Numbered from the stretch's first letter, positions 1,739-6,451 are shown. The stretch: DNA of 9,357 bases from a virus (IMGVR_UViG_2537562195_000004), one strand, 5' to 3'. A program made the numbers and translations. The notes: generated from the sequence alone by a model not told the origin.

Positions 1739-1945
1739 ATGGAAGCAATCAAAAAAGTCATCTTTCGCCAGGAAGTAAAAAAACTTATCCACATTAAGGC
1801 AGACAGCACGCTGCAAAGCATGATCAACGCCGGAGAATTCCCGCAGGGTTTTCGTGTCGGTTTGCGCCGTCGCGGATGGTATGAGGAAGACGTAATCGCA
1901 TGGATGAAAGAACGAGAACAAGAAGCGCGCGGAACGACCGCTTAA
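1739..1945 (+). CDS. alpA: AlpA-family phage regulatory protein (Vis/excisionase-like helix-turn-helix)
   Basis: 68 aa; pattern ..L..MI.AGEFP.G...G.R.RGW.E.DV..WM is typical of AlpA/Vis proteins next to P4-type integrases. GAGG RBS at 1726-1729. Confidence 0.85.
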   Translation: MEAIKKVIFRQEVKKLIHIKADSTLQSMINAGEFPQGFRVGLRRRGWYEEDVIAWMKEREQEARGTTA

Positions 1946-2066
1946 CATATATAGGGCAAATGATGAACATAAAAAAAGCGGCCCCGAAATGGAGCCACCT
2001 TTCTGAACAATTAACCCGCTGCGCCGTATGTGTCAACAATCATAAGCTTGGGCATGATAACCGCGA

Positions 2067-2270
2067 TCAGGCTGGTGGGCAATTATCTTTCTTGTTGGGG
2101 CCGTATTGTGCTGCCATTTTCATCCGTTCAGAACGTGAATATTTTTTTAGAAACTCATCAAGGACAAAAGCGCATGGTGCGAATCTTTCTGATTCATGCT
2201 CGAGCGCCATATTTTCGTGCTCTCTGTTCGTTTTTTGCGATGGTGTATCGGTTGATTCTTTATTGGTCAT
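2067..2270 (-). CDS. Hypothetical small protein, 'MTN' paralogue C (second gene of RHH cassette 1)
   Basis: 67 aa. Paralogous to 2721-2948: both start MTN + S/T/Q-rich N-terminus and share C-terminal motif F.L(D/E)(E/D)F(L/V).KY(S/P)R. Start preceded by conserved ACAGG. Family unknown. Confidence 0.45.
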   Translation of the reverse strand: MTNKESTDTPSQKTNREHENMALEHESERFAPCAFVLDEFLKKYSRSERMKMAAQYGPNKKDNCPPA

Positions 2271-2278
2271 TGTGTGTA

Positions 2279-2322
2279 CCTGTAAAGCAATGCGCCGTAG
2301 TACCTCACGCCACGGCGCTGAT
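2279..2322. repeat. 44-bp conserved palindromic intergenic element, copy 1
   Basis: cctgtaaagcaatGCGCCGTagtacctcacgccACGGCGCtgat; 43/44 identical to 2957-3000. 7-bp inverted repeat GCGCCGT (2292-2298) / ACGGCGC (2312-2318) with 13-nt loop. The single difference (2309) is in the loop. Confidence 0.8.
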
Positions 2323-2327
2323 GTTTT

Positions 2328-2501
2328 TTATCCTTTGGGTTCAATACCGCGTTGCTGTAATTCTTTTCGGAGTACTCGCTTGATCCAGGTGGCTAAAGAA
2401 GTGTCACCGTCTGCTTTCGCTGCCTCTTCAAGTTGTGCTCTGAATTCTTCTGGTAGCCGCATTTGGTATGGAGGCGATCGCTTTTCCAATGGTGTTGACA
2501 T
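2328..2501 (-). CDS. Ribbon-helix-helix (Arc/Mnt/MetJ-type) DNA-binding protein; not in the supplied ORF track
   Basis: Hand translation of the minus strand: MSTPLEKRSPPYQMRLPEEFRAQLEEAAKADGDTSLATWIKRVLRKELQQRGIEPKG (57 aa, stop at 2328-2330). Fits the Arc/Mnt beta-strand/helix/helix pattern (P.x.hRhP.E.....A...G.S.N..I...L). AGGG RBS; start abuts palindromic operators. Confidence 0.7.
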   Translation of the reverse strand: MSTPLEKRSPPYQMRLPEEFRAQLEEAAKADGDTSLATWIKRVLRKELQQRGIEPKG

Positions 2502-2543
2502 GGTAATTACCCTTAATTACTATAGTTACATGGTAATTACCAT
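2495..2543 (+). promoter_or_regulatory. Divergent promoter/operator region I: sigma70-like promoter overlaid by two GGTAATTACC palindromes
   Basis: -35 TTGACA (2495-2500), 17-bp spacer, -10 TACTAT (2518-2523). Perfect palindromes GGTAATTACC at 2502-2511 and 2532-2541 (second extends to ATGGTAATTACCAT, 2530-2543); centres 30 bp apart. A possible minus-strand -10 TATAGT for the RHH gene lies in the same region. Confidence 0.5.
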
Positions 2544-2568
2544 TGTACTTACCGTTATACAAAAAACA

Positions 2569-2680
2569 ACGCCCCGCAGTGGTGGCTCACATATGGGGCG
2601 TCTAACCAAACCATTAATTGAGGTAACGATTATGGCTATAAAAGAGCATAGCTTACTCTTTATACACACACAAACGCCCC
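2569..2680 (+). repeat. Leader module copy 1 (orphan): hairpin, RBS, ATG and ~16 codons homologous to the Icd-like gene leader
   Basis: Hairpin cgcccc (2570-2575) / ggggcg (2595-2600), then tctaaccaa, GAGG, ATG at 2632 encoding MAIKEHSLLFIHTQTP (compare MVAVNHIPHLVHTQTA at 3378). Similarity then ends. On the minus strand the hairpin is followed by TTGTTTTTT, so it is terminator-like for minus-strand transcription. Confidence 0.6.
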
Positions 2681-2681
2681 G

Positions 2682-2701
2682 GAAACGGAATAATCCGTTT
2701 C
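2682..2701 (-). other. Perfect 8-bp hairpin just 3' of the upstream MTN gene (putative RNA 3'-end structure)
   Basis: GAAACGGA-ataa-TCCGTTTC, 20 nt downstream of the stop of the 2721-2948 minus-strand ORF. Confidence 0.4.
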
Positions 2702-2720
2702 ATGGTTCCGTCTTGTGCAC

Positions 2721-2948
2721 TCATCCTGGCGGTCGGTTTTTGCCGGATTTAAGCCGCCGTGGGTATTTATCGACAAAATCTTCAAGGGCAAATTTTTCTG
2801 GTGGCACTAAGCGCGGCGCTGGTGGTGGTATTTTTGTTCTGGTTAGTTCTTCCTCAAGTCTGGCGCAGGCTTCTGACTGCCTTTGCCGGATGATTTCATC
2901 ATCTTGCGTTTGCGTGTCTTGTATTGGTGATAGTGTGTTGTTGGTCAT
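2721..2948 (-). CDS. Hypothetical small protein, 'MTN' paralogue B (second gene of RHH cassette 2)
   Basis: 75 aa, paralogous to 2067-2270. Preceded by conserved ACAGGG and the 44-bp element. Family unknown. Confidence 0.45.
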   Translation of the reverse strand: MTNNTLSPIQDTQTQDDEIIRQRQSEACARLEEELTRTKIPPPAPRLVPPEKFALEDFVDKYPRRLKSGKNRPPG

Positions 2949-2956
2949 GATACTGC

Positions 2957-3000
2957 CCTGTAAAGCAATGCGCCGTAGTACCTCACACCACGGCGCTGAT
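2957..3000. repeat. 44-bp conserved palindromic intergenic element, copy 2
   Basis: 43/44 identical to 2279-2322. Same position in a 57-bp spacer between an RHH gene stop and an MTN gene start. Confidence 0.8.
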
Positions 3001-3005
3001 AGTGA

Positions 3006-3185
3006 TTATTCTGATTCTTTGGCCTTGCGACGCTGGCGGCGTTTGATTTCGCCGCGCATGGCTGCGTTTATAAACTGCCCCGTGCTTTCACCTTCTTCTT
3101 TCACGTTCTCCATGCCTTCAATAATTTCATGGGCAATACGTGCAGTTACAGATTGTGATTTTGCATTCTTTGGCCCCGTTGCCAT
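3006..3185 (-). CDS. Small RHH-like DNA-binding protein (putative repressor of the Icd-like/rep operon promoter)
   Basis: Preferred start is the ATG at 3185 (MATGPKNAKSQSVTARIAHEIIEGMENVKEEGESTGQFINAAMRGEIKRRQRRKAKESE), preceded by GAGGGG at 6-nt spacing; the track start at 3224 lacks an RBS and would place operator copy O1 in coding sequence. Pattern VTARIAHEII....GES.GQFINAAM resembles Arc/Mnt. Fold assignment is by eye. Confidence 0.5.
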   Translation of the reverse strand: MATGPKNAKSQSVTARIAHEIIEGMENVKEEGESTGQFINAAMRGEIKRRQRRKAKESE

Positions 3186-3206
3186 GTTTAACCCCTCATG
3201 TTTTTG

Positions 3207-3287
3207 GTGTAAGACAATATACACGAAAAAAAAATATTTTGAAGGGTTGACGTGTAAGACACCGTTATTTTACATTGTGTCTTACAC
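3207..3287 (+). promoter_or_regulatory. Divergent promoter/operator region II: three copies of GTGTAAGACA(C) around a + strand promoter
   Basis: GTGTAAGACA at 3207-3216, GTGTAAGACAC at 3252-3262, inverted GTGTCTTACAC at 3277-3287 (the last two form an 11-bp perfect inverted repeat with 14-bp spacer). -35 TTGACG (3247-3252), 17-18 bp spacer, -10 TTACAT/TACATT (3270-3276). Same architecture as region I with different operator sequence. Confidence 0.5.
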
Positions 3288-3318
3288 CTTGTTGATGCAA
3301 GGTACAGAAAAGACGAAA

Positions 3319-3431
3319 CCCCGCAGTGCTGGAACACATACGGGGCTTCTAACCAACAACGTAAACGAGGAGCCGTTATGGTTGCCGTAAATCATATACC
3401 ACACCTTGTACACACACAAACTGCCTTTGTG
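3319..3431 (+). repeat. Leader module copy 2 (functional copy, upstream of and overlapping the Icd-like gene start)
   Basis: Hairpin ccccg (3319-3323) / cgggg (3341-3345), tctaaccaa, GAGGAG RBS, ATG at 3378. 33/39 identical to copy 1 over the hairpin core by manual alignment. On the minus strand the hairpin is followed by a U-rich stretch. Confidence 0.6.
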
Positions 3432-3578
3432 TGGCGTTTTCTGGCACTGAGTGCCGGAGAATCTCAAATCATCCACGTAACCGCCTGGACGGAACGCGAA
3501 GCGCGTAGCCGTTGCCCGTCCGGTTGTGTTGCTGTATTCGCTGCCCGTATTCGTCAGGGGGAAACCTATGCACAATAA
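3378..3578 (+). CDS. Small protein, probably Icd-like (host cell division inhibitor-like, as in P1 icd / P4 kil region)
   Basis: 66 aa; pattern F.WRF.A......II.V.A.TEREAR...P.G.V.VFAARI matches my recollection of Icd-like proteins annotated in P4-like prophages. Strong RBS. Family assignment from memory, not a search. Confidence 0.5.
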   Translation: MVAVNHIPHLVHTQTAFVWRFLALSAGESQIIHVTAWTEREARSRCPSGCVAVFAARIRQGETYAQ

Positions 3579-4323: not shown

Positions 4324-5729
4324 AACTGGCACCGAACGTAAAACTATTACCGAAAGACAAATACACCGATGCGATTATTTTTGCGGGTATTGATGCTCAC
4401 TCATTCGCAGAGCATTACATCATTGCACAGGCAAAAAAAGCAGGAGATCCAGTCCCTCCCGTTTATCTGGGGCGTTATCAGTTAAGCGAACTGGATAACC
4501 TCCAGATTGTTGATGATGGGCGATACAGGGCGACGGTGATACGCGCCGGAAATATTGAAGAGCCGCAGCTGTTAACCATCGCCACGAAACTGGCGATCGC
4601 CGGAGTCCAGGAGGCGCGGCTACTTTCTGAAAATTTCGAATTGCTGGAGGAATGGAGCGACCAGCTTCCACGGCTTAGGGAGGCATGGGAACGCGGGGAA
4701 AGCCTGGTCATGAAAAAAATCCCCCAGCGAAAAACCACGCTACCGATGAGCGTTGGATCTACCGGATACGACACACAGCTTGATTACGTGGTAAAGGGGA
4801 TTATTCCGGCATCGTCGCTTTGCAGCATATACGGGGCGAGCGGTTCCTATAAATCATTCCTTGCCGGATCGTGGGCGTGTCACGTTTCCACGGGCCGCCA
4901 GTGGGGAGGCCGCAGGGTGGCGCATGGCGCTGTTCTCTATGTGGTTGGTGAAGGCGGTATCGGCGTTCCGCGTCGTGTAAAAGCCTGGGAGGTTGTACAC
5001 GGGGAGCAGGTGAAAAATCTGTATCTGGTAAACCGTCCGGTCTTTCCGGCTGTCCCGCTTGATGTTGATGAACTGGTTATCGCTGCCCGTCAGGTGGAGC
5101 GGGAAACGGGTAAACCTGTACGCATGATTATTCTGGATACGCTGGCGCGGTGCTTTGGTGGCAATGATGAAAATGATTCCCGTGATATGGGGGCGTTTAT
5201 CCGTGGTTGTGACGAACTGAAACGGCGCACAGGGGCCACGGTGCTGGTGGTTCACCATTCCGGCAAGGATGAGACGAAAGGCGCGCGCGGTTCCAGTGCA
5301 TTTCGTGCTTCGCTGGATGCTGAATACCGGATACGCAGAGAGGACGCAGGCAGCGAAGCGCTGGTTATCTCATGCACCAAAATGAAGGACGCGGAGGAAC
5401 TCAAAGAAGCCGCATATGACTTACGCGTGGTGGAGCTTTTTACCGACGCTGACGGGGAGTTAATTACGTCGCTGGTGGTGGTGGATAAGCCGCGCCCTCC
5501 CGTTGAACTGGAGCGCATCGAGGAGGCAGGCAACAAGACGGAAAACCATACCGCGCTATGGGGGTGCATACGTTCACGCACACAGCACGGCGACAAGTGC
5601 ACGATCCCGCTGTTACGTGACGATATGAAAAAGCTGGGGTATGACACAAAACACCTTAAACGATGGTTAGCCAAACTGGAAAAAGACGACGTGATCTACA
5701 TTGACGGTGATGATGTAGGACCACTGTAA
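4320..5729 (+). CDS. RepA-like replicative ATPase/helicase (RecA-fold, AAA_25-type) with a C-terminal putative origin-binding domain
   Basis: 469 aa. Walker A GASGSYKS, Walker B RMIILD, and VLVVHHSGKD motif typical of AAA_25/RepA-like phage and plasmid helicases. Lies immediately upstream of the iteron array. Confidence 0.8.
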   Translation: MKLAPNVKLLPKDKYTDAIIFAGIDAHSFAEHYIIAQAKKAGDPVPPVYLGRYQLSELDNLQIVDDGRYRATVIRAGNIEEPQLLTIATKLAIAGVQEARLLSENFELLEEWSDQLPRLREAWERGESLVMKKIPQRKTTLPMSVGSTGYDTQLDYVVKGIIPASSLCSIYGASGSYKSFLAGSWACHVSTGRQWGGRRVAHGAVLYVVGEGGIGVPRRVKAWEVVHGEQVKNLYLVNRPVFPAVPLDVDELVIAARQVERETGKPVRMIILDTLARCFGGNDENDSRDMGAFIRGCDELKRRTGATVLVVHHSGKDETKGARGSSAFRASLDAEYRIRREDAGSEALVISCTKMKDAEELKEAAYDLRVVELFTDADGELITSLVVVDKPRPPVELERIEEAGNKTENHTALWGCIRSRTQHGDKCTIPLLRDDMKKLGYDTKHLKRWLAKLEKDDVIYIDGDDVGPL

Positions 5730-6189: not shown

Positions 6190-6451
6190 CCGCATAGCGG
6201 AGGAACTCGAGGCGAAAGGATTTTACCGGAGGGCGGCGGCGCGATGGGGTGAAGTCATGCAGCTGGTGGAGACAGACAAGGAACGGCATCAGGTTACGAT
6301 GCGACGGCTGGAATGTTCCAGGAAAGCACAGAGGCAACCGGAGCCGCCGGATAACTTCGGAGACCTGAGAAAGGCAGTAGATCGCACTTATGCTGAAATG
6401 GGTATAGATGGTGTAAGCGATGAAATATGGTGTAATTACCAGGACAGCTAA
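6179..6451 (+). CDS. PerC-family transcriptional regulator (PerC/Pch-like)
   Basis: 90 aa; N-terminal DRIAEELEAKGFYRRAAARWGEVM matches the PerC-family signature (AE.LE.KG.WRRAA.RW) as I recall it. Followed by an intrinsic terminator. Confidence 0.6.
   Translation: MIHDRIAEELEAKGFYRRAAARWGEVMQLVETDKERHQVTMRRLECSRKAQRQPEPPDNFGDLRKAVDRTYAEMGIDGVSDEIWCNYQDS

Follow-up and report, generated by a model that had tools for sequence, protein, structure and literature searches.

Does a 57-codon stretch of the minus strand, overlaid by a long open frame on the opposite strand, encode a protein, and could this protein be a repressor of the phage-satellite island in which it lies? We addressed this question for the locus termed RHH_A within a viral sequence of 9,357 nucleotides, hereafter the window. 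The window region matches E. coli strain 4 (NZ_CP045209.1; window = L001 6102–15458) with 100% identity, and there it belongs to an island of ~9.6 kb located beside tRNA-Pro between yejM and yejO. The island comprises, in order, an integrase, an AlpA-like HTH, four small leftward genes, an icd-like gene, DUF4222, a RepA-type helicase, PerC and a ClpP-protease/major-capsid fusion, a repertoire described for Gram-negative PICI-type and capsid-encoding PICI-type phage satellites (PMC6092414; 10.1101/2022.09.08.507074). For Gram-negative PICIs, induction has been ascribed to the activator AlpA, with no repressor identified (PMC6092414).

Portal, terminase and connector genes are absent from this ~9.6-kb island with its protease/major-capsid fusion, so that it departs from the full gene set published for capsid-forming PICIs. 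An O157:H7 relative (L074) carries capsid, decoration protein and TerS only. An identity of the O157:H7 island L068 with the published EcCIEDL933 was considered but is not claimed, as L068 carries capsid, decoration protein and TerS only and measures ~10.7 kb compared with the published 15.4 kb.

A conserved 57-codon gene on the minus strand

ORF listing with a 30-aa cut-off recovered an ATG-initiated frame of 57 codons, the product of which is MSTPLEKRSPPYQMRLPEEFRAQLEEAAKADGDTSLATWIKRVLRKELQQRGIEPKG (Table 1). As the default of the listing is 60 aa, this frame was absent from the ORF track available to the earlier note, whose proposal of a short minus-strand ORF below the track cut-off was borne out, including the peptide that it quoted. 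Protein searches identified homologues in 93 clusters with 56–96% identity, mostly 56–58 aa in length, from Enterobacterales, Pasteurellaceae, Aeromonadales and Orbales. Residues R21, Q23, E25, D31, L36, A37, W39 and K46 are invariant in an alignment of 53 sequences of the family, and the carboxy-terminal motif RRGIEPKG is kept even by remote members. The family is nevertheless small, as an exhaustive profile search of 1.84 billion representatives returned only 36 RHH_A-family clusters.

Table 1 Features of the RHH_A locus and of the adjoining paralogous module in the window (residue numbers where indicated)
Feature	Position	Strand	Description
RHH_A	2328..2501	−	57-aa gene of a predicted ribbon-helix-helix repressor; from ORF listing, homologues, substitution pattern and structure model
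RHH_A predicted parts	residues 10–57		β-strand ~10–16 (PYQMRLP), helix A 18–31, turn G32-D33-T34, helix B 36–50, tail RGIEPKG
67-aa gene	2067..2270	−	PHROG 21027; downstream of RHH_A
Hairpin D1	2292..2318		between RHH_A stop codon and 67-aa gene; repeated at 2970–2996
P_R	2495..2523	+	predicted sigma-70-type promoter; −35 TTGACA 2495–2500, 17-nt spacer, −10 TACTAT 2518–2523
O1	2502..2511		perfect palindrome GGTAATTACC, predicted operator; abuts RHH_A start codon, at −10..−1 in nearly all related loci
Shine-Dalgarno of RHH_A	2510..2514	−	AAGGG, 8 nt upstream of ATG
O2	2530..2543		perfect 14-bp palindrome ATGGTAATTACCAT, predicted operator; contains GGTAATTACC at 2532–2541
Third palindrome copy	2544–2553		degenerate, TGTACTTACC
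P_L	2542..2569	−	predicted RHH_A promoter; −35 TTGTTT (complement 2564–2569), 16-nt spacer, −10 TACAAT (complement 2542–2547)
Hairpin D2 with U-run	2561..2601	−	hairpin 2570–2600; predicted intrinsic terminator on RHH-sense strand
icd' remnant	2632..2680	+	Shine-Dalgarno GAGG 2620–2623, ATG, ~16 codons homologous to the N-terminus of the icd-like gene at 3378
Putative −10 of cis-antisense RNA	2645..2650	−	TATGCT; position of TAnnnT hexamer in relatives
Module B (paralogous)	2721..3377	−	adjoins intact icd-like operon at 3378
Module B 75-aa gene	2721..2948	−	
Module B YlcI/YnfO-family gene	3006..3185	−	NF041551, 64 bits
Module B repeats	3206–3216, 3252–3262, 3277–3287		GTGTAAGACAC; inverted at 3277–3287
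Module B rightward promoter	3247–3276	+	TTGACG-18-TACATT
Module B hairpins	2970–2996; 3318–3348		D1; D2

To determine the frame under selection, substitution patterns were derived from 27 distinct 57-codon genes out of 66 genomic loci. The RHH_A frame exhibited a pS of 0.72 and a pN of 0.15, corresponding to a pN/pS of 0.20, whereas the three antisense frames over it ranged from 0.40 to 2.6. Variable columns at codon positions 1, 2 and 3 amounted to 33, 22 and 53 of 57, respectively. Together, pN/pS and third-position variation indicate that the minus-strand frame is the selected one, and, judged from these comparisons, the 57-codon frame is a real and widely conserved gene, in agreement with the conservation of the ORF on which its proposal had been made to depend.

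The opposite strand contains a 496-codon frame (1900–3390, +) that lies antisense to each of the four leftward genes and also spans every spacer, with one stop in 1491 nt versus 37 and 24 in the other plus-strand frames and with spacers whose openness has a shuffle p of ~3e-6. One could hence regard the minus-strand ORF as spurious and the long plus-strand ORF, or the 'Icd-like' extension called in O157:H7, as the real product, the more so as an overlapping 'Icd-like' pseudogene appears among the PGAP calls for O157:H7 and O26. We consider this exceedingly unlikely, since the long-ORF frame has a pN/pS of 0.40 compared with the 0.20 of the minus frame, in which nearly all third positions vary, since it contains 8–9 stops in L071–L073 and is broken in roughly half of the loci belonging to other genera, and since its Cys/Ser-rich translation has no homologue evidence of its own. 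The long frame is intact in L070, and in L071–L073 the ~800 nt from the ATG of the icd remnant to icd are still open; its O157:H7 equivalent (L068 3558–4502, +) is a 314-codon frame in phase with icd. This openness may keep read-through transcripts translated, or may be an effect of composition.

In E. coli strain 4, PGAP annotates RHH_A as WP_000106747.1, 'hypothetical protein', so that the expectation that automated annotation would miss the gene fails for this genome. It holds for the inspected O157:H7 (strain 2149) and O26 (RM8426) genomes, where the same protein, with one E-to-D change, is intact and unannotated by PGAP, the gene being covered by the 'Icd-like' pseudogene call on the opposite strand. 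This pattern was found in 10/30 sampled rows, and the feature lists of other Shiga-toxin-producing E. coli suggest that RHH_A is likewise replaced there by an opposite-strand pseudogene call, making its displacement a practical annotation problem in these strains. At L068 3558–4151 and L075 536–1051 (O157:H7, O26) the call opposite the intact RHH gene reads 'Icd-like protein, incomplete', and the small gene downstream of RHH is without PGAP annotation as well.

The product is predicted to adopt a ribbon-helix-helix fold

The Pfam profile check suggested by the earlier note gave a divided answer. Arc (PF03869) is the family most often matched, by 20 of 53 RHH_A family members at E ≤ 0.1 with a best value of 1.5e-4, but RHH_A itself reaches 16.5 bits (E 0.0079) over residues 9–32 only, below the gathering threshold of 20.4. 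Likewise, the NCBIfam profile YlcI_YnfO_N (NF041551) scored 20.1 bits (E 4.8e-4), the curated cut-off being 30. PHROG 228, 'Arc-like repressor', matches RHH_A with an E of 4.9e-7, and remote relatives match HicB, RHH_1, RHH_5 and Arc. A weak hhalign alignment (E 0.0015) paired RSPPYQMRLPEEF of RHH_A with KMPQFNLRWPREV of P22 Arc.

A PDB sequence search with the family profile resulted in only spurious matches to designed helical repeat proteins, and fold comparison was therefore used instead. The AlphaFold monomer model (pLDDT 77) shows an extended amino terminus and two helices spanning residues 18–31 and 36–50, the β-strand not being formed in the monomer. RHH proteins make up nearly all of the top Foldseek ranks, Arc reaching TM 0.64–0.68, although none of the matches is significant (all E > 1). 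The predicted succession of an amino-terminal β-strand and two helices within ~45 residues corresponds to the RHH topology, and D31-G32-D33-T34-S35 at the amino terminus of helix B provides the Gly-x-Ser/Thr/Asn turn, D31 being invariant and G32 and D33 at least 90% conserved among the 53 sequences. Based on PHROG 228, the family and remote Pfam matches, hhalign, the AlphaFold model, the Foldseek ranks and the turn motif together, we treat the predicted RHH fold as established. The Arc/Mnt-type pattern that had been recognized in the 57-aa protein is thus corroborated by the structure model, the Foldseek ranks and PHROG 228, and RHH_A is an uncharacterised RHH subfamily that by score lies outside the curated Arc and YlcI/YnfO families.

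The tail RGIEPKG (residues 51–57, window 2331–2351, −) extends beyond the predicted helix B and is kept even in remote relatives with different DNA-reading residues, rendering it a candidate partner-binding, helper-contact or degradation signal. We found no description of the RHH_A gene in the searched literature on YlcI/YnfO, satellite RHH proteins, cf-PICI repressors and SpLE2.

Palindromes and promoters upstream of RHH_A

The window contains two exact copies of GGTAATTACC, at 2502–2511 and 2532–2541, against a chance expectation of ~0.009. At up to two mismatches 11 matches were obtained, compared with a shuffle mean of 3.9, and 0/200 shuffles reached this number. The two perfect palindromes, O1 and O2, have a centre-to-centre distance of 30 bp. 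The earlier note had located the start codon within this pair of palindromes; the palindromes themselves are perfect, but the codon, CAT on the plus strand at 2499–2501, abuts the proximal copy and both copies lie upstream of the gene, with an extended 12-nt repeat (2500–2511) taking in only the 'AT' of the codon. A single one-mismatch copy, TGTAATTACC, at 6431–6440 in the 3' end of the PerC-family gene is probably due to chance.

The proximal palindrome overlaps the Shine-Dalgarno sequence of RHH_A and lies inside the 17-nt spacer of P_R, a near-consensus promoter with 10/12 matches in the promoter scan and a predicted start at ~2530. The −35 element of P_R is the complement of RHH_A codons 1–3 (ATG TCA ACA). 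This overlap is retained: TTGACA is found in all 50 unique loci with the TGTCAA start motif, which is missing from only 3 full-length homologues and is kept in almost all loci, even where the start codon is GTG or TTG. A −10 element with at least 4/6 matches at a distance of 16–18 nt is present in 46/50 loci, and GGG/GGAG is kept at the Shine-Dalgarno position in related loci. P_L is weak, with 8/12 matches and a predicted start at ~2535, and in most class I loci the corresponding TTGnTT/TAnAAT pair has its end at −40 or −41. P_R and P_L are predicted to face each other with starts a few nucleotides apart, both under O2; the start sites and the repression at these promoters are putative, derived from sequence comparison.

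Across ~50 distinct upstream regions from many genera the position of the palindromes is fixed, O2 usually lying ~30 bp (28–35) upstream of O1 and being degenerate in some loci. The common order towards the RHH gene is a hairpin with T-run, TAnAAT, the distal palindrome, ~16 nt, GGG, the proximal palindrome and the start codon. The sequence of the palindrome changes with that of the β-strand: RSP(Q/P)(Y/F)QM(RL) pairs with GGTAATTACC, RSPQFPM(RL) with GGTATATACC, KTDQYQ(I/L)(RL) with TGTAATTACA, GNPPFQF(RL) with GTGTAATTACAC and, in Pasteurellaceae, KS(Q/T)QYQ with (A/T)GTAATTACA. These covariation classes are few (about five) and phylogenetically clustered. Independent of this clustering, the link between operator and protein is supported by joint replacement, as in the E. 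coli islands L071 and L072 the 5' half of the RHH gene and the operators are swapped together between flanks that are 96–98% identical to the window; in L070 the neighbouring YlcI/YnfO gene is replaced along with its own operators. On comparative grounds, joint replacement of this kind corresponds to the mosaicism that an immunity-specificity cassette would produce.

The suggested check of palindrome conservation in homologous islands thus gave a positive outcome, with a position fixed in ~50 loci and a sequence that co-varies with the β-strand. Repeated palindromes placed on predicted promoter elements and co-evolving with the putative DNA-reading residues are what an autoregulated repressor would display, and we infer that the GGTAATTACC palindromes behave as RHH_A operators. 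In Photorhabdus (L033, L035–L038, ~3770 and ~4990) two tandem RHH copies ~1.2 kb apart each have GGTATATACC operators, with an HTH/toxin-like gene pair in between, representing another form of module stacking.

Weak matches to PHROG 'partition protein' families (E ~1e-3, residues 8–32) would also be compatible with a centromere-binding ParG/omega-like protein serving the partition of the excised satellite. This reading is scarcely credible, as the island has no ParA/ParM-type ATPase gene and the sites are only two, positioned exactly on promoter elements and forming no repeat array.

The 67-aa gene downstream is probably co-transcribed with RHH_A. An RHH gene followed by a small gene, with a palindrome over promoter and ribosome-binding site, resembles CopG/ParD/RelB-type operons, and some sources label homologues 'HicB family', so that RHH_A might be the antitoxin of a type II pair with the 67-aa protein as toxin and autoregulatory palindromes. 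We regard this as very improbable: the 67-aa protein yielded no toxin-family match in Pfam, NCBIfam and PADLOC, PADLOC gave no defence-system match for RHH_A or its neighbours, and the conserved adjacent toxin gene of a type II antitoxin is lacking, since the 67-aa gene is not kept beside RHH homologues in other genera, where integrase or alpA directly follows, and the conserved partner is instead the divergent icd leader with its promoter.

Hairpins and a putative antisense RNA

Hairpin D2 exhibits strong covariation, with compensatory changes in 10/12 pairs and 94% of cells paired, which 0/500 shuffles matched and for which slid controls were far lower. G-U pairs number 39 on the RHH-sense strand compared with 10 on the opposite strand; this bias together with the U-run identifies D2 as a terminator for a transcript in the RHH direction. 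The other strand of D2 is part of the 5' leader of the icd-type gene, and the icd 5' end is all that lies upstream of D2 in single-module islands. A TAnnnT hexamer that terminates exactly 13 nt ahead of the end of the divergent start codon is present in ~28/55 loci; its position suggests a cis-antisense RNA of ~75 nt with a predicted start at ~2638 (−), covering the start codon and Shine-Dalgarno sequence of icd' and ending at D2. Since the individual promoter scores are modest, we put this RNA forward as a hypothesis only. An Rfam scan of the whole window at E ≤ 1 revealed no C4/CI-type or relevant RNA, with two sub-threshold matches at chance level only.

Two further sequence elements were observed. 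A 75-nt direct repeat (2260–2334 and 2938–3012, 81% identical) includes a GC-rich hairpin between repressor gene and small gene as well as the first codons (MTN) of both small genes, and may be a recombination joint or a partial terminator. A terminator-like hairpin with T-run, CACACAAAC(T/G)GCCTTTGTGTG GCGTTTTCTG, is located at 3413–3442 (+) and in L068 at 4340–4369 (+). It lies within codons 12–19 of the icd-like gene, the icd remnant (2632–2680) breaking off in its left arm, and may serve as an attenuator linked to the translation of icd.

The outer of two stacked modules

The RHH_A module is the outer of two stacked modules in the window, and P_R faces a 16-codon icd remnant, in which MAIKEHSLLFIHTQT aligns with MVAVNHIPHLVHTQT of the intact icd before the homology ends. 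The inner module B has the same kind of parts, its leftward promoter being back to back with TTGACG-18-TACATT, and its YlcI/YnfO-family protein probably has the same repressor role with another specificity; BLASTP of RHH_A against this protein (3006..3185) gave no alignment. At least 38 E. coli genomes, with 85–100% identity, share this arrangement of two modules.

In other islands the RHH gene directly adjoins the replication side. An alignment of 16 diverse loci displays a nearly invariant ...CGTTACCTC...TAGCCAT upstream of the hairpin, the complement of a Shine-Dalgarno sequence and ATGGCT, with which the icd-like gene or a primase begins in other islands. The RHH gene and icd or primase are transcribed divergently in L005, L049, L053, L055, L068, L076 and Pmp8, the partner being primase in L005 and icd in L049, L053 and L055. 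In the O157:H7 island L068 P_R faces icd, the order in QDFD216 is alpA, RHH, icd, and in the 15-kb satellite-like genome of Pasteurella Pmp8 the RHH gene is opposed to the icd/primase side. P_R would hence lead directly into the icd/primase operon in E. coli O157:H7, O26, Xenorhabdus, Cedecea, Pasteurella and others. A position opposed to and directly adjoining the replication operon next to int, as for Stl/Rpr, is seen for the RHH gene in related islands, whereas in the window module B and the icd remnant intervene. The Pmp8 genome (L069, OR544139.1, 'Pasteurella phage Pmp8', 15.3 kb) carries an integrase remnant, primase, Icd-like, an RHH homologue (81% identical), AlpA-type, TerS, TerL and HNH genes, and looks like a capsid-forming satellite rather than a phage.

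The arrangement in the window raises the alternative that RHH_A is intact but orphaned, a recombination relic of heteroimmune satellites left with only autoregulation or immunity in trans against satellites with GGTAATTACC operators. This would account for a P_R that faces only the 16-codon remnant, for the inner YlcI/YnfO module adjoining the intact icd with its own operators and promoter, and for the different RHH alleles held at this position by otherwise near-identical islands. Yet RHH_A and its operators are 100% identical to those of L070 although the neighbouring segments differ, the layout of two modules is maintained over the whole identity range of the genomes that share it, and the plus-strand frame is open from the icd' ATG (2632) to 3390, beside the intact icd start, so that P_R transcripts could be translated up to the operon. 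We therefore consider the orphan state unlikely.

Proposed role of RHH_A

The toxin–antitoxin, partition and long plus-strand ORF readings were rejected on the evidence against each. We propose that RHH_A is probably a small Arc/Mnt-type repressor in the regulatory region of a PICI-type satellite that would shut off rightward transcription, with an outer lock or immunity role in the window. RHH_A dimers would bind both palindromes. Occupancy of O1 would fill the P_R spacer next to the −35 element shared with the first RHH_A codons, and occupancy of O2 would cover the predicted starts of P_R and of the weaker P_L. Through these two sites, the bound repressor would block transcription from P_R towards the icd-type leader and the replication genes, and at higher concentration it would limit its own synthesis from P_L. 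DNA binding, transcription starts and the direction of regulation are predicted here from sequence and model.

Since P_R faces the icd remnant in the window, while an inner module with other operators adjoins the intact operon, RHH_A would here most likely act as a second lock or immunity determinant, either on transcription reading through into the operon or, in trans, on satellites related to this one. Control of the island's own operon is uncertain, as no intact gene lies behind P_R in the window. The designation as a key regulator accordingly applies in part: from gene order it is likely for the family, as the gene sits against the icd/replication operon in other islands, and uncertain for the copy studied here.

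More tentatively, and with considerable doubt, the RHH family might provide the missing repressor, or the immunity determinant, in satellites of the Gram-negative PICI and capsid-encoding PICI type, organized as an immI-like four-part switch in exchangeable, stackable cassettes. The parts of such a switch would be the RHH repressor, the face-to-face promoters with the −35 of the strong one embedded in the repressor's start codons, the ~75-nt cis-antisense RNA over the icd ribosome site and the icd leader with its internal terminator. The specificity cassette would consist of the β-strand-coding half of the gene and the operators, swapped between islands and stackable in tandem as in the window. 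RHH_A is a candidate off-switch for a satellite island type without an identified one and would give a testable handle on how satellites are kept silent, by what means AlpA or a helper phage lifts this silence, and what makes heteroimmunity possible among closely related islands.

Comparison with known systems

The closest resemblance in kind of protein is to Arc and Mnt of the P22 immI region, small RHH repressors (~53–83 aa) with palindromic operators read by the amino-terminal β-strand; there the operators overlap closely spaced opposed promoters and serve autoregulation, as predicted for RHH_A from its sequence. In P22 immI, sar is a small antisense RNA over the ribosome site of the neighbouring gene, and an RNA of this type is plausible for the RHH_A island. 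Similarity to Arc in sequence is sub-threshold (Pfam Arc, 16.5 bits), and the conserved carboxy-terminal tail RGIEPKG has no Arc counterpart. Unlike P22, the module has a single repressor with two 10–14-bp palindromes 30 bp apart, compared with the 21-bp Arc operator, its target is an icd-type leader followed by replication genes instead of the antirepressor, and its host element is a satellite, not a phage.

With immI of P1/P7 (c4, icd, ant), these islands share an icd-like small gene heading the operon and a conserved structured RNA element directly upstream of the ribosome-binding site. The RNA predicted here would be cis-antisense and hairpin-terminated, whereas the P1/P7 RNA is processed and from the same strand, and the RHH_A island in addition has a protein repressor. 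In coliphages 186 and P2, the repressor gene has a weak promoter directed towards a strong 'lytic' promoter, an arrangement also predicted for RHH_A; in 186 (pR and pL), repressor expressed from the weak promoter results in a block of the strong one. In contrast to 186/P2, the predicted starts at RHH_A are only ~5 nt apart, so that polymerases at P_R and P_L would be directly mutually exclusive, the first codons of the repressor gene contain the −35 of the strong promoter, and the repressor is an RHH protein and not a helix-turn-helix CI.

In Gram-positive PICIs (SaPIs), the gene for the repressor Stl/Rpr lies next to int and opposed to the replication operon (PMC6092414). Position and presumed role of the RHH gene match this in related islands; fold and size are unrelated, and no helper-phage antirepressor is known for RHH_A. 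The YlcI/YnfO module (NF041551) next door shares with the RHH_A module a small protein, repeated operators over a TTGAC(A/G) rightward promoter, both hairpins D1 and D2 and a small downstream gene, and weak profile cross-matches of RHH_A link the two (NF041551, E 4.8e-4; PHROG 949, E 0.008). They differ in the lack of BLASTP similarity and the score of 20.1 against a cut-off of 30, in the operator, GTGTAAGACAC in module B versus GGTAATTACC for RHH_A, and in promoters that are back to back in module B and face to face at RHH_A. RHH_A is an uncharacterised addition to a well-known kind of repressor.
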